From the IMG/VR virus record IMGVR_UViG_3300028585_000030, positions 1 to 49,690 of that record: DNA of 49,690 nucleotides; one strand, written 5' to 3'. The stretch comes from a virus. Lineage: Duplodnaviria > Caudoviricetes. The stretch's first letter is position 1; every line of letters begins with the position of its first letter. Below are positions 1 through 31,283 of the stretch, piece by piece. The notes beneath the pieces are model-generated. The model ran no database searches. It was not told the DNA's origin and was given only the letters and a program-made list of their open reading frames with translations. The position numbers and the translations under genes were made by a program.

Positions 1-149
1 GCCCGAGGCACGGTCTCCCCCGTGGACGCCCGGCTCTCGCGCCTGCTCCGCCGCACGCTGCCCGAGTTCTACATCGCCATGTGGGCCTTCGGCTCGCTCG
101 GCGTGCTCGGCGGCGTCCCGGCCCTCCGGCAGACCTTTGGGCAGGACTA
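1..149 (+). repeat. Terminal direct repeat, left copy (assembly circularisation overlap)
   Basis: Matches 49542-49690 except at positions 10, 19 and 23. Confidence 0.95.
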
Positions 150-423
150 CGCGATCGGCCTCAGCTTCGCCCTCGCCGCGGCCTCCCTCGCGTGCTTCGC
201 CGGCATCGTCCTCCCCGCGCGCCTGTCACGCTTCGAGCTCTACGGAGCGGGCGCCCTCGGGGGCCTGCTCATCCTCTACGCGATCGCCGTCCTCATCGCC
301 GGGCTCACGACGGGCGACCTCGGCCGCACCGCCGTCGCCGCGGCGATCTACGGGATGTCGACGCTGCCACGATGGCGCGTCACCGACGTCGCGCGCGAAC
401 GAAGGGTCCACGGATGGAAGTAG
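1..423 (+). CDS. 4-TM membrane protein of the lysis cassette, 3' part; true start is GTG 49491 across the circular junction
   Basis: Four hydrophobic segments; frame continues from 49491 (MRSVLGGVRR...AEDARLSRLL); follows the holin by a GTGA overlap. Confidence 0.75.
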   Translation, partial: ARGTVSPVDARLSRLLRRTLPEFYIAMWAFGSLGVLGGVPALRQTFGQDYAIGLSFALAAASLACFAGIVLPARLSRFELYGAGALGGLLILYAIAVLIAGLTTGDLGRTAVAAAIYGMSTLPRWRVTDVARERRVHGWK

Positions 424-950
424 CAGCAGCAGCCCTCCCCGCCGGCTTCGACATCCCGCCGGGCGTCGCCGGCGTCATCGCGTCCGTGTGCGTCCTCATC
501 GGCATCGTCTACCAGGCCCGCCGCGCCGACAAGCGCGCGAAGTCCGACGAGACCGCGGAGCCCGTGCCCGAGGTCGCAGTACCCGCCGCGCCCGTGCCAC
601 CGCCGAACGCCGACATGGACTTCGTCCGCTACGTCCGCGAGGAGGTCGCGAGCGCGGTCGCCCGCGAGACCGCCGCGCTCCGTGCCGAGCTCGACGACCT
701 CCGCGAGCACTTCGGCGCCGTCGCCGGCAAGCTCGCCCGCACTCGACAGGCATTCCGCGAGTTCATCCGCGATGTCTACGAGCTATGGCCCGCCGGGCCC
801 GTGCAGCCCCCGCACGTGCCCGGTCACGTCCGCACCCTCCTGCTCGAGGACGACCTCGACGGCACTCTGTCGCGCGCCGAGGTGCGCGACAGGGTCGCGA
901 CCGATCGAGCAGTCCGCGAATCCACCACCGAACCTGACAACTACGGCTAG
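414..950 (+). CDS. Single-TM membrane protein with coiled coil (lysis accessory)
   Basis: ATG 414; N-terminal TM ([17 protein letters not shown]), basic patch, then heptad-like segment; located in lysis cassette. Confidence 0.65.
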
Positions 951-958
951 GAGACCTC

Positions 959-2383
959 ATGCCCGAGCAGCTCGCTCCCCCGGTCGCCCCGAACGGGCGT
1001 GTCGTCCGTCGCTTCACCGCGGCGGACGGCACGCCCGCGAGCGGCGCCGTGATCTTCACACCCCGCGCGACGTCGGCCGTGCCCGGCGCCGCGATCGTCG
1101 ACGCCTCGGTCGTCGCCGAGCTCGACGCCGAGGGGTGGATCAGTCAGGACCTCGTCGCCTCCGAGCAGGACGGCACGTTCCGCACCTACGTCGTCGCGCT
1201 CCGCGGTGTCTACTACGGCTTCGACCAGGAGACCGCGCCGGCCTTCGACATCGTCGTGGCCCCCGGCGAGGTCCTCGACCTCGGCGAGGTGACCCCCGTG
1301 CCGCCGAGCTTCGGGGTCGCCCTCGTCGTCGACGAGTCGACCGCGATCCGGGCCGAGCTCGCCGCGACGTCGTCCGAGGTCTCGGCCGCGCGCGCCGAGA
1401 GCGCCGCCGATCGCGCCGAGGCCGGCGGAGGAGGCGACGGCAGCGGCACCGTGGGCCCCGCAGGCCCGGCCGGCCCCCGCGGCCCCGAGGGGCCCGCAGG
1501 AGAGCCCGGAGCGACCGGAGCTCGTGGCGCGGACGGCGCGACGGGTCCTCGCGGCCTCGACGGCCCCGTGGGCGCCACCGGCTCCCCGGGCACCGCCGGC
1601 CCGAAGGGTGAGACCGGCCCGGCCGGCCGTGACGGCAAGGATGGCGCCACCGGTGCCACCGGCCCCCGCGGCGAGACCGGCGAGGCCGGCCCCGTCGGTC
1701 CGGCCGGCCCCGCAGGCGGAGGCGACGGCACGGGCACGGTCGGCCCTCAGGGACCCGCCGGCCCGGCCGGTCCCGCCGGCGCGGACGGCGCGACCGGCCC
1801 CGTGGGCCCGGCCGGCCCCGAGGGCCCCCGAGGTGAGACCGGGGCCGCAGGTGCCGACGGAGCCCGAGGCGCAACCGGCCCGGACGGCCCGCAGGGGCCC
1901 GCAGGAGCCGACGGGACCGCCGGGGCGACCGGAGAGCGCGGACCGACCGGCCCCGAGGGCGCAGAGGGGCAGCAGGGGCCGCGGGGGATGACCGGTGCCG
2001 ACGGGGCAACGGGCCCTCGAGGGCCGATCGGCGAGACCGGCGCCACCGGTCCGACCGGTGCCACGGGGCCCGCCGGCGCGGATGGCGCGACGGGAGCGAC
2101 CGGAGGCGCCGGCAAGGATGGCGTGACGGGCGCCACGGGCCCGGCCGGTAAGGATGGCGCGGCCGGCGCGAAGGGTGACACCGGGGCCGCCGGGACGGCG
2201 GGCGCCACCGGTGCCACGGGCGCCACGGGGCCGACGGGTCCGACCGGTCCGACGGGCTCGGCCGGCTCGACGGGGCCGACCGGCCCGCAGGGGGCGACGG
2301 GCAACGTCCTCCTCCTGCCCGCAGGCGCCACCGCGACCCCCACGACGACGCCGGCGGGCACGCTCGTCGCCTACAGGAGCTAG
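959..2383 (+). CDS. Collagen-like (Gly-X-Y) minor tail/fibre protein
   Basis: AGGAG RBS; long GXY run about 1450-2300 with a GGGDGTGTV interruption; globular N-terminal domain. Confidence 0.85.
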
Positions 2384-2386
2384 GCC

Positions 2387-3991
2387 GTGGCGTACACGAT
2401 GCCCGCGCGGCGGACCCCGAGCTACACGGTCCTCTCGGGCACGCAGCACGTGTGTGCGTTCGACAGCTCGATCGCGGTCGGCGACCTCATGGTGCTCGTC
2501 ATCGAGCAGGTCGCCTCAGCGACGTCGCCGGCACCGACGGGTTGGGCGCTTCGGGCCTCGAACACGCACAACTCGCGAGCCCTGTTCGTGTTCACGAAGG
2601 TGCGCGAGACCGACGAGACCGGGGTCACCGTGACCCGGTCGACGGCCGGCGCGGGCAAGGCGACGATCGCGGCGCTCGGGTCGGCTAGGACCGATCCGAG
2701 TACGTGGGTCATCGGCGCGATCAAGGGGCGCGCGCAGAGCCCCGCGGACACGAACGTGCAGACGACCGCCTTGAGCATCACGACGACTCAGGCGAACACG
2801 ATGGTCCTGTCGATCTTCGGCGAGGCGACGACGACGAACGAGACAGCGACGCCGCCCACGGTCGCCGGGGCGACGTTCTGGCACTACGCGCCGCAGACTC
2901 AGGCGAGCTCCGAGATTGAGACCGTCCTGCTCGCCTACGAGGAGATGGCGGCCGCGGGCGCGACGGGCAACACGGTCGCGACCTACCAGAACGTGCAGGC
3001 GAGCAACGGCGCCGGCGTTCAGATCGGGTTCCCGGGAGTCGAGACCACCGCGCCGATCATCCCGAAGCTCGCGGCGAAGGCGGCCGACGGCGCCGGCGGC
3101 ATCATCGACGTCGGCCTGGTCGGCTACGACGGGTCGGCCGAGGTCGCCCTGGCGAAGGTCGAGTACGTGCACGGCGGCACGATGGTCCCCGACCTCGACC
3201 GCACCTCGCGGGTGTGGACGATGGGGCACCGAGGCGGGTCGCTCGACTACCAGGAGCACAGTGCTCGGGGCTACGTCGAGTGCGCGATCAACCACCTCGA
3301 CGTGTTGGAGTTCTCGGTGGCCATGAGCTCCGACGGGGTCCTGTTCGGGCTGCACGACGACACCCTGAACCGGACTTCGTCGAGCCTAGGGTCGACCGCT
3401 GTGAAGCCGGGCGATCGGACGTGGGCGCAGATTCAGGCACTCGTCCAGGACCTGCCGAACCGGGGCGACTCCCGGTTCACCACCGCGCCCTACCTCAGCC
3501 TCGACGACTTCGTCGCGCAGTGGGCGAATTCCCACACCCTCATGTTCGACCCGAAGGTCCTCAGCACCGCGCAGCGGAAGGTGCTCATGGCCCGGCTGCA
3601 ACAGATCCCGGACTATCAGCGGCGGGTCCTCGGGAAGTACTACACGACGGGCACCGCGATCGCCGACGAGTTCCACGCGATCGGCTGCAAGGTGTGGGGC
3701 TACAGCTACACCGCCGACCTCGGGACGTTCCCGAACGGCACCGGCACCGGCCAGCCCTTCGTCGTGCGGACCGACAGCAGCAGCACCGTCGGTACGGCGT
3801 CGAAGTGGGACTACCTCGGCCTCGAGTACACCGCCGACGATCGGGCGTGGGCCGCGATGCTGCAAGTGGCCGGCTCGAAGAAGGTCGTCGCGCACATCGT
3901 GCCGACCGCGGCCGCGGCGACGTCGGCCGTCGCGAAGGGCGCCCGAGCCCTGCAAGTCTCGGGAGTCCGATCGGTCTCCGCCGCCTACTGA
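2387..3991 (+). CDS. Two-domain protein: beta-rich N-terminal domain plus glycerophosphodiester phosphodiesterase (GDPD) domain; probably virion-associated
   Basis: GDPD motifs GHRGG, EHS, LEFSV..SSDGV.FGLHDDTLNRT. Confidence 0.8.
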   Translation: MAYTMPARRTPSYTVLSGTQHVCAFDSSIAVGDLMVLVIEQVASATSPAPTGWALRASNTHNSRALFVFTKVRETDETGVTVTRSTAGAGKATIAALGSARTDPSTWVIGAIKGRAQSPADTNVQTTALSITTTQANTMVLSIFGEATTTNETATPPTVAGATFWHYAPQTQASSEIETVLLAYEEMAAAGATGNTVATYQNVQASNGAGVQIGFPGVETTAPIIPKLAAKAADGAGGIIDVGLVGYDGSAEVALAKVEYVHGGTMVPDLDRTSRVWTMGHRGGSLDYQEHSARGYVECAINHLDVLEFSVAMSSDGVLFGLHDDTLNRTSSSLGSTAVKPGDRTWAQIQALVQDLPNRGDSRFTTAPYLSLDDFVAQWANSHTLMFDPKVLSTAQRKVLMARLQQIPDYQRRVLGKYYTTGTAIADEFHAIGCKVWGYSYTADLGTFPNGTGTGQPFVVRTDSSSTVGTASKWDYLGLEYTADDRAWAAMLQVAGSKKVVAHIVPTAAAATSAVAKGARALQVSGVRSVSAAY

Positions 3992-4001
3992 TCCGCCCCG
4001 C

Positions 4002-4054
4002 ACACGACAGCGCCCCCCGACCTCATCCGAGGCCGGGGGGCGCTTTCGTCGTGT
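4002..4054. terminator. Bidirectional intrinsic terminator between convergent genes
   Basis: Long hairpin acacgac..cgccccccg-acctcatccgaggc-cggggggcg..tttcgtcgtgt. Confidence 0.8.
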
Positions 4055-4061
4055 CCGGGGT

Positions 4062-5156
4062 CTAGCTCTCGTCCTCCACGGAGTCGAGGGCGACCTGGCG
4101 GCGACGGGCGACGAGCACGGCGCCGAGGCCGAGCAGCGCGAGCCCGAGCGAGCCACCGACGGCCGCCCACAGGTTCGCGGTCGAGCCGGTGAACGCGAGA
4201 CCGTCAGGGGTCTCAGTCGACGCGACCGCGGCCGGGGCCGGGGTCTCGGCCGGCACGATCACCGCGGCGGGCGCCGGGGTCTCCGTCAGGACGGGGGCGA
4301 TCGTCACGGGCGTCGTCGGCTCGGCCGTGGGCTCCTCGACGGGGGTCTCCTCGACGGGCGTGCTCGGCGTCGTGGGCTCCTCGACGGGCGTCGTCGGCTC
4401 GTCAGTCGGCGGGGTCACCACCGGGGGCTCCTCCGTGGGGCAGTTGCCGACCGAGGCGAACGACCACGAGCGGTCGCCGGCGGTCACCGTGTAGGTGCCG
4501 TCGATCGGCTGCAAGCGCGTGCCGTCGGCGTCCGTGTGCACGGCCTCGCCGGCGGGGACGACGAAGGTGACGCCCTGCACGAGGTAGGTGACCTCGGCCG
4601 TGCTCGCCGTGTTGTCGAGGACGAACGCCCCGCCGTCGCACGTGATGTAGTCCTGGACCCGCGGCTCGACGACGACGACGGGCGGCGTCACCACCGGCGG
4701 CTCGACGGGGGGAGTGACGACCACCGGGGGCTCCACGGGCGGGGTCACGACGACCGGGGGCTCGACCGGAGGCACGACCACCGGCGGCTCGACGGGCGGC
4801 GTCACGACCGGGGGCGGCGTGATGCAGGAGGCGGGCGTGGCGCCGGTCTCCGTGAACGAGTAGCGCGGGCCGTCCGAGCTCACGACGCTCACCGTCCAGT
4901 CGTGGCGCGTGTTCGGGGCGAAGTTGACCGAGTCCTGGAAGCCCTCGGCTCCGAAGGTGGCCGACCAGGCCGTCTTGCCGTCGACGACGGCGGTCGTCGT
5001 CGAGCCGGCGGGGTAGCCCTGTAGCTGCAGAGCTATCTGGGTGCACGACGTCACGAACGTCGGCGTGTGGGCCTGTGCGGCCTGCGGGGCGGCGACGACG
5101 CCGAGGATGGCGAGCAGCCCGACGCCGTAGGGCGCGAGCTTCGTGAGGCGGTTCAT
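4062..5156 (-). CDS. Secreted sortase-anchored (LAFTG) Pro/Thr-rich cell-surface protein
   Basis: AGGAGA RBS before ATG 5156; Sec signal ending AAQA; PPVVTPPVE repeats; C-terminal LAFTG, hydrophobic helix and RRR. Confidence 0.85.
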   Translation of the reverse strand: MNRLTKLAPYGVGLLAILGVVAAPQAAQAHTPTFVTSCTQIALQLQGYPAGSTTTAVVDGKTAWSATFGAEGFQDSVNFAPNTRHDWTVSVVSSDGPRYSFTETGATPASCITPPPVVTPPVEPPVVVPPVEPPVVVTPPVEPPVVVTPPVEPPVVTPPVVVVEPRVQDYITCDGGAFVLDNTASTAEVTYLVQGVTFVVPAGEAVHTDADGTRLQPIDGTYTVTAGDRSWSFASVGNCPTEEPPVVTPPTDEPTTPVEEPTTPSTPVEETPVEEPTAEPTTPVTIAPVLTETPAPAAVIVPAETPAPAAVASTETPDGLAFTGSTANLWAAVGGSLGLALLGLGAVLVARRRQVALDSVEDES

Positions 5157-5206
5157 GAGGTCTCCTGTGATCGAGGTGATGGTGGTTCTGCCTAGAGGGG
5201 CAGCCC

Positions 5207-5231
5207 CGCCCCCTGACGATGCCAGGGGGCG
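5207..5231 (-). terminator. Hairpin between leftward genes
   Basis: cgccccctg-acgatgc-cagggggcg stem-loop. Confidence 0.5.
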
Positions 5232-5242
5232 AGACAACGCCG

Positions 5243-5668
5243 CTAGAGCCGGCGGAGGTTCGGGTAGTACATCTCCTCGAAGGCCGGGAGCGTCATGCCC
5301 TTACTCGTGCCGTATCCGGCGAAGTCGCTCGCGAACATCGCGATCGAGGTGCGGCAGCTCGTCCGCTCACGGGCGTAGGCGAGCGCCTCGTCCCATGCCG
5401 CGTTCCTGACCTCGCGGGGGGTCGGTTGCTTGCCGACCGTGAGGCCCTCGACGACCGTGACGCCGACGAACTCGGGCAGGGCGGTCACCGGCCACACGTA
5501 GTAGCCGTCGTCGTCGAGCACGCCGCCGAGGGTGTAGTCGGGGTCGAGCCCGAGGGCTCGCAGGTCGTGCTCGCCGACGTAGAGCCCGGGGGCCGGAGCT
5601 TCGACGGGGGTGACGCCTTCGACGGCGTAGGCGTGCGGTGCGAGGTTGGCGAGCGAGATGAGCAGCAT
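5243..5668 (-). CDS. Hypothetical protein (leftward operon)
   Basis: AGGAGA RBS; phage-typical codon usage on the minus strand. Confidence 0.7.
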   Translation of the reverse strand: MLLISLANLAPHAYAVEGVTPVEAPAPGLYVGEHDLRALGLDPDYTLGGVLDDDGYYVWPVTALPEFVGVTVVEGLTVGKQPTPREVRNAAWDEALAYARERTSCRTSIAMFASDFAGYGTSKGMTLPAFEEMYYPNLRRL

Positions 5669-5696
5669 GAGGGGTCTCCTGACGAGTCGAGTCGAG

Positions 5697-5987
5697 CTAG
5701 ATCGTGTAGCGGGCGGCGGCGGTCTCGAGGCCGACCAGCAGCGCGGCGAGCAGGTCGGCGGGGCGGGCGACCTCCTCGACGGCCATGAGCAGGTCGACGG
5801 CGTCGCGGGCCGCGGCGTACAGGCTCGGGCGCGGCTTCACGAGGCGGACGAACATCGCGGCCGCCAGGACCTCCTCGCCGGCGACGGAGATGAGCTCGGG
5901 CTCGTTGTCCAGGGCGAGCTCGACCGCGGTCTCGGCGATGCCGTGACGGACCGGGATGGCGAGCAATTCGAGCGGCGTCGTGGTCAT
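5697..5987 (-). CDS. Hypothetical protein (first leftward gene)
   Basis: AGGAG RBS; codon usage. Confidence 0.7.
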   Translation of the reverse strand: MTTTPLELLAIPVRHGIAETAVELALDNEPELISVAGEEVLAAAMFVRLVKPRPSLYAAARDAVDLLMAVEEVARPADLLAALLVGLETAAARYTI

Positions 5988-6004
5988 GGTGGCTCCTGTT
6001 GTTC

Positions 6005-6124
6005 GGGCGGATCGTGGTTGGTGTCATGAGTCTCACACAAGTCACGTCGTGACGCAACTAGTCACGAAAAGACGTGAGCGAGTCTGATTCGTGCTATGTT
6101 CGTCATCACAACCACGATCCGCCC
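6005..6124. promoter_or_regulatory. Divergent promoter/operator region
   Basis: Leftward TTGCGT(6057-6052)-17-GAGACT(6034-6029); rightward extended -10 TGcTATGTT (6092-6100); palindrome GTCACGtCGTGAC 6041-6053; 16-bp inverted repeat 6005-6020/6109-6124. Confidence 0.7.
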
Positions 6125-6145
6125 TCACCACCTACAGGAGCACTC

Positions 6146-6787
6146 ATGACTCGCACCGACGACATCGCAGCAGCCCGAGCAGCCGACGAGCGCATCGCCG
6201 AGGTGTGGGGCATCTACTGGGATGCCGTCGACGAGCAGGTCGCCCCCGCCGTCCTCAGCGTCCGCGAGGCCCGCCGACTCGCGAAGCACGCCGCCGGCCG
6301 CAACGCCGAGCGTGCCGCCGCAGCGCAGACCCGCCTCGAGGCCGCGATCGCCCGCGAGGATGCCGCCCGCGAGGCCGTCCGCCCTCTCCGCGACGCCGCC
6401 CGCACCCTCGACGACGAGCTCTATACCGGGTGGACCCGCTTCTACCTCGTGCAGCACATCCACTCCTCACAGTCGTGCTCCTCGTTCCGCCCGACGACGC
6501 GCGTCGGATGGCTGCCGAAGCTCTCCGGCCTGACCGAGGCCGAGGCCGTCGCCGCCCACGGCTCGATCCTCTGCACGAAGTGCTTCCCGAGCGCCCCCGT
6601 CGAGTGGACGGACGGCCGCGGCGCCACGGACGACGGCACGTGCCCCGGCTCCGGCACCCCGGTCTCTCTCGCGCCGAGCTCGCGCCGTGGCTACGCCGCC
6701 GGCAACTGGGCCGAATGTCCCGAGTGCGGCAAGCGCGTCGGCATGCCCGGCTCCGCCGCGAACGTGCGTAAGCACGCCCGCCCCTGA
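6146..6787 (+). CDS. Hypothetical protein with Cys/His metal-binding motifs (first rightward gene)
   Basis: AGGAG RBS; HIHSSQSC, CTKCFPSAP, CPGSG...CPECG. Confidence 0.75.
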   Translation: MTRTDDIAAARAADERIAEVWGIYWDAVDEQVAPAVLSVREARRLAKHAAGRNAERAAAAQTRLEAAIAREDAAREAVRPLRDAARTLDDELYTGWTRFYLVQHIHSSQSCSSFRPTTRVGWLPKLSGLTEAEAVAAHGSILCTKCFPSAPVEWTDGRGATDDGTCPGSGTPVSLAPSSRRGYAAGNWAECPECGKRVGMPGSAANVRKHARP

Positions 6788-6794
6788 CCCCCAC

Positions 6795-6818
6795 GGGGGC
6801 CGCCGACCGGCGGCCCCC
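6795..6818 (+). terminator. GC-rich hairpin after the first early gene
   Basis: gggggccgcc-gacc-ggcggccccc; no U-tract. Confidence 0.5.
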
Positions 6819-19976: not shown

Positions 19977-20266
19977 GCCGCTCACCGCTGACCGCCCCCG
20001 AGCTCGCCCTGCTCCGGGTCGCCCTACAGCAGCACGGCAGCGGCGTCGGCCTCACCGTCGAGCGGCTCGCGACCCTCACCGTCGTCGGCCGCGGCATCCT
20101 GCTCAACTCCACGAACCGCACCCGCTACGCCGGGCACGTCGCCGAGCTCGTCCGGTTCGGCCTGCTCGCGCTCGAGGAGGGCGTCGAGCTCTCCGGGTCC
20201 GAGCTCGTCGGCATCACCGACGAGGGCCGCGAGACCCTCGCCGAGCAGCAGGGGACCCGGCTGTGA
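19973..20266 (+). CDS. Hypothetical protein, possible winged helix
   Basis: L...GLL.......ITDEGRE wing-like end. Confidence 0.5.
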   Translation: MSRSPLTAPELALLRVALQQHGSGVGLTVERLATLTVVGRGILLNSTNRTRYAGHVAELVRFGLLALEEGVELSGSELVGITDEGRETLAEQQGTRL

Positions 20267-20523
20267 GCGCCGCCGACGTGCAGGCCGCCACCATCGAGGG
20301 CATCGACCTCGACGCCGTGGTCCCGTGCCTCGCCGACGGGTGCCCGACCGGAGCCGTGTGGGCGGCCCGCTGCCCCGCGTGCCCGCGGGAGGTCACTGTG
20401 TGCGACCACCACCGCACGGCCGTCGACCTCGCAGCGACGATGCTCCGCGATAAGTACCCGACCACGCAGTGCGCGGGATGCAACACGTGGACGCCGACCG
20501 AGTTCGATTGGCGATCGCTGTGA
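20263..20523 (+). CDS. Cys-rich Zn-binding protein, tandem paralog 1
   Basis: DLDA.V.C...C...CPAC...C..H...CAGC...W..L. Confidence 0.7.
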   Translation: MSAADVQAATIEGIDLDAVVPCLADGCPTGAVWAARCPACPREVTVCDHHRTAVDLAATMLRDKYPTTQCAGCNTWTPTEFDWRSL

Positions 20524-20786
20524 GCACCGCGACCGAGGAGCGCGCCGACGTCGTCGAGCTCGTGGTCGACCTCGACGCCGACGTCATCTGCAACGCCCCC
20601 CGCGGGTGCGACCGGGTCGCCGAGTGGGTCTACTACTGCCCCGCCTGCCGTGACCCCTGGCTTGCCTGCTCCTGGCACCGGATGGCGCAGGACGTGCACC
20701 TGGCGACCAACCCGCCGTTCATCCTGCCCGCGTGCTCGAAGTGCGAGGCGGACCTGCCTCGCGTCATCCCCTGGCGCCCGCTGTGA
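20520..20786 (+). CDS. Cys-rich Zn-binding protein, tandem paralog 2
   Basis: Same Cys pattern; GTGA coupling. Confidence 0.7.
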   Translation: MSTATEERADVVELVVDLDADVICNAPRGCDRVAEWVYYCPACRDPWLACSWHRMAQDVHLATNPPFILPACSKCEADLPRVIPWRPL

Positions 20787-21049
20787 GCACCGCGACCGGA
20801 GAGAGCGTCGAGGTCGTCGTCGATGTCGACCTCGACGCGGAGGTGCCCTGCACCGTCACGATCGACTGCCCCCGCCCCGGAGTCGTCGCCGGCAGGTGCG
20901 CCGGGTGCCGCAAGATCAGCACCGCGTGCGAGCCGTGCAAGGAGTACCTCGACGTCGAAGCGCGATTGTGCAGGCTCATCGGCGCCGGCCTCGCGTGCGC
21001 CGAGTGCGACCACCTGTTCCCCTACCCGCTCGTCTGGCTCCCCCTCTAG
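20783..21049 (+). CDS. Cys-rich Zn-binding protein, tandem paralog 3
   Basis: Same Cys pattern; GTGA coupling. Confidence 0.7.
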   Translation: MSTATGESVEVVVDVDLDAEVPCTVTIDCPRPGVVAGRCAGCRKISTACEPCKEYLDVEARLCRLIGAGLACAECDHLFPYPLVWLPL

Positions 21050-24531: not shown

Positions 24532-24712
24532 CTCCGAGCCGTTCGCCTACACCTGCCCCCTCTGCCCGTTCTCGTTCGTCGGCCGCAACCTGTGGGCCTT
24601 CGACAGGGCGATCGCCGTCCACGACCACCTCGAACACGGCGCCCCGCTGCACGGCGGCGACGGCGTCGTCCCCACCGATCCGCCACAACCACCATCAGGA
24701 GAGACACCGTGA
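24524..24712 (+). CDS. Small C2H2-like Zn-binding protein
   Basis: CPLC......H..LEH. Confidence 0.5.
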   Translation: MTDSEPFAYTCPLCPFSFVGRNLWAFDRAIAVHDHLEHGAPLHGGDGVVPTDPPQPPSGETP

Positions 24713-25041
24713 AGCAGAAGAAGCACGACCGACTGGTCCGCGAAGCCGTCGCCCGAGCCGTCGCCGAGGCCCTCGCGCAGAGGACCGCGGAGGCCGTCGA
24801 GGCGAACACCAGGCGGACCGCCGAGCAGACCCGCGAGGACCTCGCCCTCATCGCCGCCGGCATGATCCCCGTCCGGGTTCTCCGCCGCTACGCGCTCCGC
24901 GGCAGCGCGAACCTCGTCCACGAGTTCGGCCGTGACATGCCACCCGAGACCACCTACTCCGTCCGGTTCCTCGGCTCCGACCCCGTCGTCGACGCCGCGT
25001 TCCGCGCGATCGACGCGGACCCCGACGAACTCCCGTTCTGA
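24709..25041 (+). CDS. Hypothetical protein with acidic C-terminal DPDELPF tail
   Basis: AGGAGA RBS. Confidence 0.65.
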   Translation: MKQKKHDRLVREAVARAVAEALAQRTAEAVEANTRRTAEQTREDLALIAAGMIPVRVLRRYALRGSANLVHEFGRDMPPETTYSVRFLGSDPVVDAAFRAIDADPDELPF

Positions 25042-25064
25042 CCACGACCACCAGGAGGCACACC

Positions 25065-25562
25065 ATGACCGACCAGCCCGTATCCACCCTCACCGTGCGC
25101 GGCCTCACCGCCGTCGACCTTCGCCGGGTCCTCGGCGTGATCCCGCTCCGGCCCGGCATCAGCATCGACGCGACCATCCCGCACGCCGAGCCCGCGCCCG
25201 ACGCTGATCCGCTCGTCATGCCGCCCACCATCACCGTCGCCGAGCTCGCGACCTACATCGTCGGGTTGCGGCCGGCGCGGGTGGCACTCGTCGCCCCGGC
25301 CGGCTCCCGCAGCAGCGCCCTCGGCAGCCTCGAAATGCTCGCCGTCATGCTCGGCTCCGAGCGGATCAAGAGCTACCAGCGCACGAACGGCCGGGAGGTC
25401 GTCGAGCTCTCGACCGGGCACACCGTGGCCGTGACCACCGCCGAGGAGGAGACCCGCCGCGGCGACGCCGCCACCGTCGTGTTCGTCGTGGCGCCGCGCG
25501 AGTACACCGCCGCGATGCACGCGCTCACTGCCACCGTCCCCTCGTTCACCCTCAACGACTAG
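25065..25562 (+). CDS. Protein with a degenerate terminase-ATPase-like C-terminal half
   Basis: AGGAGG RBS; gapless by-eye alignment to this phage's TerL (NG...RG...RE spacing conserved). Confidence 0.6.
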   Translation: MTDQPVSTLTVRGLTAVDLRRVLGVIPLRPGISIDATIPHAEPAPDADPLVMPPTITVAELATYIVGLRPARVALVAPAGSRSSALGSLEMLAVMLGSERIKSYQRTNGREVVELSTGHTVAVTTAEEETRRGDAATVVFVVAPREYTAAMHALTATVPSFTLND

Positions 25563-25571
25563 GAGCACGCC

Positions 25572-25937
25572 ATGACGACCAACAACCTCAACCTCATTGC
25601 GGCCCGAGCGGATGCCGCTTCGCCCGGCCCGTGGACTGTTGCCGGCGGCGAGCAGGACCTCGAGACCGGCACATGGGCCCCGACAGAAGTGATGGGCCCG
25701 CGCTGGCCGAACGACGAGGACTCTGAGTTCATCGCTCACGCGCGGCAGGACGTGCCCGCCCTCGTCGACGAGGTGCGCGAGCTCCGCGAGCTCGTCGCCG
25801 CGATCCGCTCGACAGGCGGCCTCCCGATCGACGAGTGGTGGCAGGCGATCCGGCAGCTCATCAGGGACCGCGACGCGCAGGAGGCCGTCGACCTCGTCGC
25901 CGCGACGACGGGCCCCGGATCGGAGCCGTGCTCGTGA
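25572..25937 (+). CDS. Ead/Ea22-like phage protein
   Basis: I.ARA.AASPGPW ... D.EFIAHARQDVPALVDEVRELR. Confidence 0.65.
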   Translation: MTTNNLNLIAARADAASPGPWTVAGGEQDLETGTWAPTEVMGPRWPNDEDSEFIAHARQDVPALVDEVRELRELVAAIRSTGGLPIDEWWQAIRQLIRDRDAQEAVDLVAATTGPGSEPCS

Positions 25938-26485
25938 CCGGCTTCTTCCTCTCGGCCGACTACCTCATGGGCTCGCCGTGGCTCCGGCAACTCCTCTCCG
26001 TCCGCGTCCGGCCGACGCCCGTCGTCCCCGTCGGCACGCCGATCCGAGTCGTCACGGGCGACATCTACGCGCACCCGCTCGACATCATCGCGATCGAGCA
26101 CCGCAACCCCCACGACCGCCTCGACGCCTCCGGGAAGTGGTTCGCCGAGCAGATCGCCGACCGGTTCGACGCCGCGGCCGCCCGCCTCGTCGACGCCGGC
26201 CGCTCCGACCGAGCGACCATCATCGCGAGTGACGTCAGCACCCGGACCGACTACGAGAGCCTCAGGGGGCAGACCGAACTGTTCCGCGAGTACCTACAGC
26301 ACGCCGGCCCCTACCCCGGGACCCCGACGAGCAGGCACGGGCACGGCATCGCGATCGACCTGCACCACGTCGACCGCGAGCCCTGGCACTTCACGCACCC
26401 GACCCCGGACACCATGACCGTCGACGAGGCCGACGCCGTGTTCCGCGAGCTGCACCGGCGCAGGAGGGGCCGGCCCCGTGCATGA
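25934..26485 (+). CDS. Protein with a degenerate M15 (D-Ala-D-Ala peptidase-like) motif set
   Basis: TSRHGHGIAID...REPWHF. Confidence 0.6.
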   Translation: MTGFFLSADYLMGSPWLRQLLSVRVRPTPVVPVGTPIRVVTGDIYAHPLDIIAIEHRNPHDRLDASGKWFAEQIADRFDAAAARLVDAGRSDRATIIASDVSTRTDYESLRGQTELFREYLQHAGPYPGTPTSRHGHGIAIDLHHVDREPWHFTHPTPDTMTVDEADAVFRELHRRRRGRPRA

Positions 26486-27827: not shown

Positions 27828-28009
27828 GCCGCGGCCTCGGGCACATCGCCGACCGGGTCGCCCTCGCCGTGGTCCGGGCAGCAGCCCGGCAGCGCGAGAC
27901 CGAGCTGCAGGGCATCCGGCAACGGGCCCGTGCACGGGAGACCCGGGACCAGCGCCCCGCCCTGCGGAGCATCCCCGGGGGCAGGCTCCCCGGGGGCCCC
28001 CGAGCATGA
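27824..28009 (+). CDS. Hypothetical basic protein
   Basis: GGGAG RBS; ATGA couplings. Confidence 0.45.
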   Translation: MSRGLGHIADRVALAVVRAAARQRETELQGIRQRARARETRDQRPALRSIPGGRLPGGPRA

Positions 28010-28356
28010 CCCCCCGCCCCGACAACGGGCTACCCCCCCGCCGGCCCCGCCCTCAGGCCACCCCCACCGGCATCGACGTGCCACCGTGGGGCGGACGCCG
28101 CGCACAGGAGGCCCTCGCACAGGTCAAGGCGAGGGGCCGGCGCGCGTCCCTGCCATGCGTCATCTGCTCACAGCCCATCGACTACGGCCTGACCTATCCA
28201 CACCAGGACTCGTGCAGCGTGCAGCACGTGAAGCCACGCAAGCGGTACCCCGAGCTCACGTGGGACCCGCGCAACTGGGAGCCATCGCACCTCGTCTGCA
28301 ACAAGCAGCAGGGCGAGCGCGACGCACCACCGTCGCTCGGCATCACGTCACTCTGA
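28006..28356 (+). CDS. Packaging-associated HNH endonuclease
   Basis: CVICSQPID...SVQHVKP....PEL..DP.N...SH..CN; just upstream of terminase. Confidence 0.85.
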   Translation: MTPRPDNGLPPRRPRPQATPTGIDVPPWGGRRAQEALAQVKARGRRASLPCVICSQPIDYGLTYPHQDSCSVQHVKPRKRYPELTWDPRNWEPSHLVCNKQQGERDAPPSLGITSL

Positions 28357-28763: not shown

Positions 28764-29066
28764 ATGGACGTTGGAACGCCGAAACCGCCCCCGTCAGAGG
28801 GACGAAAAGTGCCCGAAATCGCGGCCGGAGACCTCGAATCGGCCCGAATCGGGGGACATCGGCCCGGAATCGGCTCGAATGAGGTCGGCACGTTCGCCGG
28901 TTCGGCCGTCTGGGCCTACTCGTGCCCCTGCGGGTGGTCGATCCGGTCCGGTCACCGCGCCGACTTCGATCGACGGGTCCTCCTGCACGACGAGGGGCAC
29001 TCGATCGAGCTCGACGAGGTCCTCACGGGCGCCGACTGCCCCTGCGGGTGCGGGCTGCCCGCATGA
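28764..29066 (+). CDS. Hypothetical Cys-containing protein
   Basis: GAGGAG RBS; CPCGW...H..H, CPCGC. Confidence 0.5.
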   Translation: MDVGTPKPPPSEGRKVPEIAAGDLESARIGGHRPGIGSNEVGTFAGSAVWAYSCPCGWSIRSGHRADFDRRVLLHDEGHSIELDEVLTGADCPCGCGLPA

Positions 29067-29458
29067 CCCTGCTCGAAGAGACCGACAAGGCGATCGCCGC
29101 AGCTCCGCACCTGCTCGACCCCCGCTACGCGGGGTCGCTGCAGGCCCTGCGGATGCTCGCCGGCAAGGCGGACCAGTGGCACAAGATCGTCGAGTACGCC
29201 ATCGAGGACATCGAGGGCGCCGACGGTCGCCGGCGGCCGGCGGTCCCGCAGAACGACAACACCACCCTGGCGAGCTACGCGAAGCTCTCCGAGCAACTCG
29301 GCCTGACCCCGATCGGCCGCAAGACCCTCGACGGGGTCGGCGGCGCGAACGGCGGGGCAGCATCACCAGCAGGCAAGACCGACGGCGCAGAGGAGGCGGG
29401 CACCAGTGGCAAGACGGGAAAGCTCGGCCTCATCACCCCGATCAGCGGTCCTAGATGA
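29063..29458 (+). CDS. terS: Terminase small subunit
   Basis: Position before TerL; DN.T...Y.K....LGLTP.GR motif. Confidence 0.8.
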   Translation: MTLLEETDKAIAAAPHLLDPRYAGSLQALRMLAGKADQWHKIVEYAIEDIEGADGRRRPAVPQNDNTTLASYAKLSEQLGLTPIGRKTLDGVGGANGGAASPAGKTDGAEEAGTSGKTGKLGLITPISGPR

Positions 29459-31283
29459 CCCCCGCGACGGCTCCTACCACGACGACGTCGTGCACGAGGG
29501 CTGGGAGCAGCTAGAGCCCGGCAAGCGGTACGGCCGCGCCGTGCCGCGCGTGTTCACCCCGCCGCTCCGCGAGCTCGTGCCCGAGGTCCGCGACGAGAGC
29601 GGCCGGATCACGCAGGAGGCGACGTCGTGGGGCTACCGCGTGATCGTGTTCGCCGCGGTCGTCCTCGAGATACGCCTCATGCCCTGGCAGAGGTGGCTCC
29701 TGATCCACATGCTCGAACTCGACCGCCGGGGCCGGCTTCGGTTCCAGACGGTCGTCGTGCTCGTCGCCCGGCAGAACGGCAAGTCGACCCTGTCGCAGGT
29801 CCTGTCCCTGTGGTTCATGATCGAGGCGAAGTGGCCCCTGGTCCTCGGGACCGCGCAGGACCTGACCACCGCCGAGGAGGTGTGGGAGGGCGCCGTCGCC
29901 CTGCTCGAAGATGACCCCGAGCTGACGACGCTGATCGCGAAGCTCTCGCAGCGCAACGGCAAGAAGATGGTCACGCTGACGAACGCGACCCGGTACCTCG
30001 TGAAGGCCGCGAGCCGGAAGGCCGGCCGCGGGCTCTCGGGGAACCTGATCCTCCTCGACGAGCTCCGCGAGCAGCAGAACTGGGCCGCGTGGGGCGCGAT
30101 CACGAAGACGACGAACGCGCAGACGGAGAGCCTCATCGTGGGGCTCTCGAACGCCGGCGACATCACGAGCGTCGTCCTCCGGTACCTCCGGCTCCTCGCG
30201 CACAAGGCGGTCGGCGACCCCGACGGCCTCCACCGCGACGTGCTGGGCGTGCTGCCCGGCCCGTCCGTCGTCGACGTCGACCCGATCGACCCCGAGGACG
30301 AGGACGAGGTCGACGAGCTCCTCGACGAGCTCGAACAGGACGAGGACACCCTGTTCCTCGCGGAGTGGTCGGCCATCCCCGGCATCGCCGTCAAGGATCG
30401 CGACGGCTGGGCGCAGGCTAACCCGGCCCTCGGGTACCGCGTGCAGGAGCGCAAGATCGCCGGCGACGCCCGCACCGACCCCGAGTGGATTTTCCGCACG
30501 GAGGTCCTCTGCCAGTGGTCGGACTCGACCCTCGAGGGGCCCTTCGCTCCCGGCTCCTGGGAGCAGGGCACGAACGAGCCGGTGCAGGCGACCGACATCG
30601 ACGGCGAGCCGCTCGTCGACGAGGACGGCAAGCCGGTCCCCGAGCTCGACGAGCGCGGTGCCCCGATCGTGCGCGAGGCCGACAAGATCGTCGGCCGGTT
30701 CGACGTGTGCATCGACCAGAGCAGCGACCGCGGCACCGTGTGGATCGTCGCCGTCGGCACCCGCCGCGACGGCAAGCAGCACGCCGAGGTCATGATCGGC
30801 CTGCCCGGCACCGACCGGGTCTCCGACTTCCTCCTCGACCCGGTCCGCCGCAGCCGCATCAACCGGGTCACCGGGCAGTGGCGAGGCGCCCCCATCAGCC
30901 TGTTCATGGCCGAGCTACAGAAGGACCCGAAGTTCCCTCTGGAAGTCGTCGAGTGGCAGGGCGGCGCCCTCACCGGAGGCACCGGCCTCCTCCTCGACGC
31001 CGTCCGTGACGTCACGGTCCGGCATCACAAGCAGCCCGCCCTCGACATCGCCGCAGCGACGGCCGTTCTCAAGCAGCTCGGCGGCGAGCAGGTCATCGAC
31101 CGGTTCGCCTCAGAGTCGGACGTGTCGCCCCTGATCGGCATGGCCGGCGCGCTGTGGCTCCACCGGCAGCGCAAGACCGCGCCGCCGCCTCCCCCGCCGC
31201 CTCCGGCGGTACTCCGCAAGACCGACGACGGCTCCGCCGGCGGGAACACCCTCACGGGTGACCTGTCCCGGATGTCGTTCTGA
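29406..31283 (+). CDS. terL: Terminase large subunit
   Basis: AGGAGG RBS; LMPWQ, Walker A VARQNGKS, Walker B ILLDE, coupling motif SNAG, W.QANPALG, FRTE.LCQW. Confidence 0.95.
   Translation: MARRESSASSPRSAVLDDPRDGSYHDDVVHEGWEQLEPGKRYGRAVPRVFTPPLRELVPEVRDESGRITQEATSWGYRVIVFAAVVLEIRLMPWQRWLLIHMLELDRRGRLRFQTVVVLVARQNGKSTLSQVLSLWFMIEAKWPLVLGTAQDLTTAEEVWEGAVALLEDDPELTTLIAKLSQRNGKKMVTLTNATRYLVKAASRKAGRGLSGNLILLDELREQQNWAAWGAITKTTNAQTESLIVGLSNAGDITSVVLRYLRLLAHKAVGDPDGLHRDVLGVLPGPSVVDVDPIDPEDEDEVDELLDELEQDEDTLFLAEWSAIPGIAVKDRDGWAQANPALGYRVQERKIAGDARTDPEWIFRTEVLCQWSDSTLEGPFAPGSWEQGTNEPVQATDIDGEPLVDEDGKPVPELDERGAPIVREADKIVGRFDVCIDQSSDRGTVWIVAVGTRRDGKQHAEVMIGLPGTDRVSDFLLDPVRRSRINRVTGQWRGAPISLFMAELQKDPKFPLEVVEWQGGALTGGTGLLLDAVRDVTVRHHKQPALDIAAATAVLKQLGGEQVIDRFASESDVSPLIGMAGALWLHRQRKTAPPPPPPPPAVLRKTDDGSAGGNTLTGDLSRMSF

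Follow-up and report, generated by a model that had tools for sequence, protein, structure and literature searches.

A P-loop-less protein resembling the TerL ATPase core, encoded ahead of the packaging genes of a phage contig, and its possible role as a decoy

The phage contig of IMG/VR record IMGVR_UViG_3300028585_000030 (49,690 nucleotides, analyzed in full and called the window here) carries an intact gene for the large terminase subunit (TerL) and, with its 3' end 3.8 kb ahead of terL, a gene for a 165-residue protein, P0001, that is very probably homologous to TerL. P0001 corresponds to a middle piece of the TerL ATPase domain, lacks the Walker A P-loop and the Walker B acidic pair, and resembles an unnamed family of small P-loop-less phage proteins (minis). 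We tentatively favor the possibility that P0001 is a decoy for terminase-sensing defenses, made ahead of TerL. The features of the gene are as follows.

25065..25562, + strand: gene for the terminase-ATPase-like protein P0001, 165 amino acids (open reading frame (ORF) call; same-length variants P0003, P0004, and P0034)
25053..25058, + strand: Shine-Dalgarno sequence AGGAGG, 6 nt before the ATG (sequence)
25065..25229, + strand: N-terminal extension, residues 1-55, strand-helix-strand predicted at low confidence (block means of the predicted local distance difference test (pLDDT) 48-64)
25230..25559, + strand: predicted P-loop-less TerL ATPase-core domain, residues 56-165 (family hidden Markov model (HMM) 25.0 bits; hhalign 92%; pLDDT block means 72-91; Foldseek, VIA)
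25377..25397, + strand: NG beta-hairpin, residues 105-111 (alignment to TerL)
25458..25463, + strand: R132-G133, facing TerL R208-G209 and the P74-26 arginine finger R139 (spacing)
25476..25502, + strand: Walker B strand, residues 138-146, with DE replaced by VA and followed by RE (alignment to TerL)

The P0001 gene and its likeness to TerL

An earlier note, made from the sequence, had described a pseudo-terminase ATPase fragment at 25270-25562. The peptide quoted there lies within the ORF, but the gene starts 205 bases earlier (25065) and encodes 165 residues including a 55-residue extension. The strong ribosome binding site and normal codon bias mentioned in the note were confirmed, the G+C content at third codon positions (GC3) being 0.96 compared to 0.94 for terL. 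Assembly error is excluded because a contig from a second run matched the window over 24600-26189 with zero differences. A search of 5.8 billion proteins (421 candidates) returned three proteins, P0001, P0003 (89% identical), and P0004 (79%), all of 165 residues and gap-free. P0003 differed from P0001 at 11 positions in residues 1-55 and 7 in residues 56-165, and P0004 at 12 and 22, respectively; therefore, the domain is better kept than the extension in P0003 only. Three same-length, stop-free variants (79-89% identical) support the proposal that the gene is maintained, as do the ratios of nonsynonymous to synonymous substitution (dN/dS), which stayed below 1 for all 10 pairs of family members compared.

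P0001 residues 100-146 (25362-25502) aligned without gaps to TerL residues 176-222 (29931-30071), as had been noticed earlier; 11 of 47 positions were identical, and this was the best gapless diagonal of the pair. The C-terminal continuation proposed in the note also aligned, after a 2-residue gap. The NG, RG, and RE pairs were found to be kept, with N108-G109, R132-G133, and R145-E146 of P0001 facing N184-G185, R208-G209, and R221-E222 of TerL. Also as described, V142-A143 stand opposite the TerL Walker B residues D218-E219, so that neither the Walker B Asp nor the catalytic Glu is kept, and the Walker A P-loop (GK[ST]) is absent from P0001 and its variants. P0001 ends at residue 165, without the lid and the C-terminal RNase H-like nuclease domain. 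A split ATPase that reassembles was rejected because no separate Q motif, Walker A, lid, or nuclease pieces were found in the window, and a terminase split into ATPase and nuclease genes does not apply to the window, whose terL is complete with both Walker motifs.

The pairwise likeness of P0001 to TerL was marginal. BLASTP left the diagonal unreported (best E 0.92), Smith-Waterman shuffle p values were 0.0125 for P0001, 0.04 for P0003, and 0.42 for P0004, and hhalign of 3 with 9 sequences gave E 0.054. An HMM of the TerL middle segment (residues 140-250; 161 segments, comprising 160 fetched related TerL loci and the phage's own) scored P0001 at 15.2 bits (P 1e-6), P0003 at 17.4, and P0004 at 11.7, in the same register as the earlier alignment; none of 20,000 shuffles reached the score of P0001 (best, 10.4 bits). 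This result and an hhalign probability of 95% between the mini family and TerL provide the significant profile match to terminase ATPases that the note had proposed to look for. PHROG 6910 weakly matched both P0001 71-146 and TerL 174-235 (direct E with P0001, 0.09).

The predicted fold also agreed with the note, and neither of the two results that it had named as refuting its reading (a non-significant profile match and a different predicted fold) was obtained. In an AlphaFold2 (AF2) model of P0001 (pLDDT 74.7), both Foldseek and VIA ranked terminases first, with NAT10 a close second; the first 15 PDB rows from Foldseek were all terminases, and the top structural matches in BFVD were stand-alone mini proteins. 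When residues 59-165 were modeled by AF2 from a single sequence, the quality was poor (pLDDT 54), though the order of strands and helices agrees with that of the later model. The ESM Atlas returned 30 unnamed clusters (top three of 113-125 residues, scores 0.92-0.93), the nearest named matches being TerL ATPase fragments. A complex prediction with P0001 52-165, own TerL 40-385, ATP, and Mg scored 0.00 and is evidence neither way. Single-sequence searches of Pfam, 50,697 phages (tblastn), viral contigs, PDB sequences, PADLOC, and NCBIfam yielded nothing past near-identical proteins, and phmmer over 1.84 billion representatives found only P0001 itself.

The N-terminal extension had no sequence match to the TerL N-terminus and no Atlas hit. 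VIA ranges that start at model residue 12-18 or 52 had suggested that an eroded Q-motif/Walker A region makes up residues 1-70; this suggestion lacked sequence support, 8 of 60 shuffles scoring as high, and was rejected.

Statements attributed below to papers with PMC numbers refer to excerpts of those papers. By spacing, R132-G133 corresponds to R208-G209 of TerL and to R139-G140 of P74-26, whose arginine finger is R139 (PMC5389665); in both TerLs this predicted arginine-finger position precedes the Walker B Asp by 10 residues. The HK97 TerL, which is the sole PDB sequence relative of the phage's own TerL, lacks a classical arginine finger, and its K121/K122, which align with the NG turn when an inferred chain numbering offset of 10 is applied, are said to line the DNA pore (PMC9410871). 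Glutamates of P0001 face the basic TerL residues K187 and invariant R204; together with a net charge near zero, and thus no net positive charge, this argues against a role of P0001 in gripping DNA.

A family of P-loop-less minis and the origin of P0001

Searching the fetched loci with the TerL middle-segment HMM brought out small ORFs that stand alone; iteration led to 31 ORFs including duplicates, and a profile search added 21 proteins. The result is an unnamed family of P-loop-less mini-ATPases of 94-190 residues in PHROGs 6910, 3167, 34977, and 2074, matched by 24, 23, 17, and 6, respectively, of 28 aligned minis; 5 of the 28 matched a TerL PHROG. Pfam matched no family in these 28 sequences at E 0.01, and a search of PDB sequences with the family profile brought up no terminase. 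With a 48-sequence mini HMM built without the query, P0001 reached 25.0 bits (P 7e-10), the best shuffle 13.2, and the phage's own TerL 3.9. By hhalign, the family matched TerL at 95% (E 3e-8) and the P0001 group matched the family at 92%. Over 401 genomes, the family profile found one mini and 15 frames of 426-562 residues; among six matches that were checked, five belonged to TerL PHROGs, including the strongest (E 4e-16), and one was RecD/Dda-like.

The mean column identity of the family is 24-28%. Among 46 distinct members, the Arg and Gly of the RG pair are kept in 37 and 36, an Asp opens the last core strand in 44, and a Phe occupies the hairpin meander in 42; P0001 has other residues at the latter two positions. 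A Walker A-like string and a hydrophobic-DE string each occurred in 1 of the 46, neither judged at the motif position, and Catdawg gp4, outside the 46, retains DE. N-terminal extensions differ among P0001 and the minis of loci L039, L013, and L072. Nei-Gojobori dN/dS values for 10 pairs, which are non-independent pairs of family members rather than P0001 alleles and whose high GC3 probably understates dS, were 0, 0.62, 0.63, 0.41, 0.30, 0.49, 0.91, 0.51, 0.20, and 0.56. With its low column identity and all 10 values below 1, the family changes fast under constraint.

The origin of P0001 has two candidate solutions. When an HMM of 18 TerLs of another type was compared to one of the phage's own TerL type, 46 of 48 minis scored higher on the other type, and the order was reversed for P0001 (8.9 bits compared to 15.2 for its own type). 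Residues 96-165 of P0001 scored 22.8 bits with the family, 17.8 with its own TerL type, and 9.7 with the other type. A first tree, from a quick search, placed P0001 between the groups with very long branches; a quick tree grouped P0001 with the phage's own type of TerL at a support of 82, and the tree with P0001 among the minis was 9 log units better (P value of the approximately unbiased test, p-AU, 0.67). With these scores, and with quick trees that do not decide, P0001 may either be a long-branch member of the mini family or represent the same fragment derived a second time. The terminase ATPase homology and fold named in the earlier note stand, but P0001 is not established as a copy of its own terL since it scores 25.0 bits with the mini family and 15.2 and 8.9 with the two TerL profiles. 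It is conceivable, though we consider it doubtful, that this P-loop-less piece was excised repeatedly by actinobacterial phages, from TerLs of several lineages, and retained as a dedicated decoy where the packaging operon begins, with P0001 an independent reinvention from its own TerL type. If true, this would amount to a widespread counter-defense against fold-reading sensors, with the decoy made just before the motor that it protects.

Other fragment-like ORFs were seen in the related loci. Two diverged minis, one per subtype, stand in tandem at L043:8154-8815 and at L186:2494-3183. The mini at L025:2177-2659 has, by eye, a Q-motif-like (PWQ) piece at its C-terminus, an order reversed from that of TerL. 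At L033:7724-7993, two genes before the mini of that locus, a small ORF opens with a terminase-type Walker A-like string, again by eye; a Walker A HMM did not score it. Small ORFs near terL with RG and a hydrophobic strand, below the family threshold (L047:9379-9930, L010:8700-8975, L039:5783-6268), may represent fragments of a shorter kind. Stand-alone ORFs with only the Q-motif helix pair (TerL residues 72-108; E 1e-6 to 2.6), found with a Q-motif HMM, form a second class of genes for TerL fragments.

L018:4791-5285, L008:2002-2730, L010:2035-2763, L023:6677-7762: Q-motif-only ORFs
L020:1789-2271, L070:1243-2118, L134:7150-7356, L011:9140-9442: Q-motif-only ORFs, continued

Genomic setting and distribution

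The window is a complete circular phage contig with overlapping ends and a GC content of ∼72%. Its gene order is HNH, terS (small terminase), terL, and portal, followed by a head-tail block, and the P0001 gene is one among many small same-strand genes in the arm that precedes the packaging block. The host is likely actinobacterial because the phage's TerL is nearest to those of Arthrobacter and Microbacterium phages (45-54% identity). The contig's sampled words were 95-100% present in three leaf-litter runs, one perhaps the source run, runs with small shares being left aside for habitat, and a metagenome scan with the window matched solely its own contig. The context genes are listed here.

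28006..28356, + strand: HNH endonuclease (Pfam HNH E 1.3e-5; phrog_338 E 2.7e-20)
29063..29458, + strand: small terminase, terS (Pfam Terminase_6 E 4.8e-7)
29406..31283, + strand: large terminase, terL, intact (phrog_9 E 1e-59), carrying Walker A (residue 121), the Walker B DE (218-219), and the segment matched by P0001 (29931-30071)

The 160 related loci were chosen by terL, and the count of minis was restricted to the 90 with at least 5 kb upstream of terL. Minis were present in 17 of 89 loci (19 of 90 minus the window and L118, whose match, on the opposite strand and not inspected, was left out). When shorter loci were included, the mini was upstream of terL, on the same strand, and within ∼4.2 kb in 21 of 22 loci, often between an HNH gene and the gene at the terS position, terS being judged by position only; the mini of L115, in the tail region, is an exception. 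A PHROG 6910 search of 401 whole genomes gave five short-frame matches, all at most 5 kb from a terL-sized match.

Among cultured phages, Arthrobacter, Mycobacterium, and Microbacterium phages have the family gene; named members are Arthrobacter phage LittleTokyo gp1, Yavru gp21, and Elesar gp2, Mycobacterium phage Catdawg gp4 and DirkDirk gp92, and Microbacterium phage Stromboli gp29. It is gene 1 or 2 in many Arthrobacter phages, gene 21 in the 15-kb phages Yavru, Whytu, and Piku (22-23 genes per genome); in Catdawg, DirkDirk, and Stromboli it is distant from terL. The excerpt of the cluster O paper (PMC4351075) says nothing about Catdawg gp4. The annotation of LittleTokyo gp1 reads "terminase large subunit, ATPase domain," so annotators had already seen the likeness to TerL. 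Together with gp3 it is annotated as the ATPase and nuclease halves of a split terminase (L201:92-2322). However, gp1 belongs to the mini family (71.6 bits), the match of gp3 to TerL spans residues 37-584, and the split-terminase annotation is probably wrong.

Several other features of the window were observed. At 24950-25081, the upstream gene is matched by contigs of two further runs, which depart from the window at 25015 or about 25076-25081, a hint that the P0001 slot varies between relatives; the runs yielded no allele of the P0001 gene for dN/dS. Repeats in the window resemble those expected by chance from high-GC coding sequence. Two genes downstream of the P0001 gene, a 183-residue product without a family match (25934-26485) has a PW-containing N-terminal helix reminiscent of the TerL Q motif, which the Q-motif HMM did not detect. 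Three neighboring small Cys-rich ORFs at 20263-21049 have similar N-termini, and two of them share a 48-nt repeat (85% identical; 20509 and 20772), suggesting that they arose by tandem duplication. An opposite-strand gene block (4062-5987) lies within 1-6800, after the tail and lysis region. No integrase was recognized among the called genes, from which integrases were not specifically sought.

Possible roles and comparison with known systems

The decoy role, which we regard as possible rather than probable, fits best because the protein is a catalytically dead, accessory, fast-changing yet constrained copy of the domain that sensors read, usually encoded ahead of terL. P0001 would be made; its gene, on the terL strand, would be transcribed before terL, and the protein would thus be present before the real trigger. 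It would offer Avs1-3/Upx-type sensors the shape that they read, the arginine loop preceding the Walker B strand included, and, having no ATP pocket, lid, or nuclease, it would bind to the sensor but not fully switch it on. The tandem pairs of diverged minis in L043 and L186 are in keeping with this reading. Avs2 and Upx are described as reading the terminase ATPase domain, which alone activates Upx mostly regardless of its catalytic aspartates; EcAvs2 forms a salt bridge with terminase Arg154, seven residues before the Walker B D161; and the authors suggest that non-terminase look-alikes may be anti-defense proteins (PMC13601566). The greater likeness of 46 of 48 minis to another TerL type makes mimicry of the general fold a better fit than co-evolution with the phage's own motor.

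Several points weigh against the decoy. The small TerL look-alikes tested so far (Ksap1, Ksap2, and vs.8) all activate Avs2, and none blocks it (PMC11564622; PMC13601566). The gene is 3.5 kb ahead of terS with several small genes intervening, so that co-transcription is an assumption; a sigma-70 promoter search for the gene found none; and contigs of two RNA runs miss the gene, although these are uninformative on expression. Phages of clusters O, L, and EB carry the family gene at a distance from terL, in the neighborhood of early or middle genes. Patchiness and fast change also fit other accessory roles, and the retention of the gene by phages of only 15 kb (22-23 genes) might just as well indicate a role in packaging.

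Such a packaging role might be that of a dummy motor subunit, a less likely reading in our judgment, in which the donor (arginine-finger) face is kept and the acceptor (ATP-pocket) face is lost, so that P0001 would dock on one TerL and cap the ring; this might delay assembly of the phage's own motor or jam that of a competing phage. The RG pair at the P74-26 R139 position, kept in most of the family, is consistent with this idea, as are the retention in 15-kb genomes and the adjoining of packaging genes in LittleTokyo and, by position, in L029, L054, and L083. The idea is at odds with the patchy distribution, no mini being found in 71 of 89 related loci of the same TerL type, with the greater resemblance of minis to a TerL type other than that of their neighbor, with the missing classical arginine finger of the HK97 TerL (PMC9410871), and with the P0001 glutamates opposite K187 and R204. 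About as unlikely is that, in the distant past, a TerL fragment was co-opted as a small module that binds something unrelated, either a host protein or nucleic acid, which would leave the TerL likeness historical. The differing N-terminal extensions, the early and middle gene locations in clusters O, L, and EB, the very long branches, and the near-zero net charge all suit such an exapted fold, which leaves unexplained the strong tendency to adjoin terS and terL and the kept NG and RG surface motifs.

That P0001 is a functionless, decaying remnant of a partial terL duplication appears very improbable. All catalytic motifs are lost, close relatives are few (three proteins, and itself alone among the 1.84 billion representatives), and related contigs leave the alignment at the start of the gene; against this stand variants that share start, stop, and length without gaps, the high GC3 and strong ribosome binding site, a divergence from the phage's own TerL far beyond that of a recent copy, and the family dN/dS values. 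Hardly credible is an origin outside TerL, from another P-loop protein of similar fold (the TmcA/NAT10 helicase domain or RecD/Dda helicases), given the terminases that fill the first 15 PDB rows of Foldseek, the TerL PHROGs in 5 of 6 checked genome matches, and the hhalign match of the family to TerL.

Avs1-3 and Upx detect the terminase fold, which is hard for phages to change. The P-loop-less form is now tied to a family in cultured phages with the laboratory hosts Arthrobacter globiformis, Mycobacterium smegmatis, and Microbacterium foliorum, and therefore the choice between decoy and motor regulator is directly testable. If P0001 caps TerL rings, it would be a natural inhibitor of the packaging motor.

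Stand-alone look-alikes of the terminase ATPase have already been published (vs.8, Ksap1/2), their role being called an open question (PMC13601566), and the mini family is already present as unnamed PHROGs; no paper on P-loop-less actinophage minis was found among titles and abstract openings, with most subscription literature outside this scope. Among known proteins, the closest counterparts are the N-terminal TerL ATPase domains of the phage itself (phrog_9), D6E (5oe8), T4 gp17 (2o0h/2o0j), P74-26 (4zni), and HK97 (6z6d). Compared to its own 625-residue TerL, P0001 has 165 residues and is without Walker A, the Walker B DE, the lid, and the nuclease domain. It shares with the minis of PHROGs 6910, 3167, 34977, and 2074 the fragment boundaries, the missing P-loop, and the kept NG and RG, but is an outlier among them in lacking the family Asp and Phe, in its 55-residue extension, and in an RE motif common to its own TerL type. 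Ksap1 and Ksap2, from enterobacterial phages, are demonstrated Avs2 triggers, and no sequence homology to TerL is reported for them in the excerpts (PMC11564622; PMC13601566). T4 vs.8, like P0001, is homologous to the TerL ATPase domain and stands alone in a phage whose terL is normal; in contrast to P0001, which has neither motif, vs.8 keeps Walker A and Walker B, and it activates EcAvs2 (PMC13601566).
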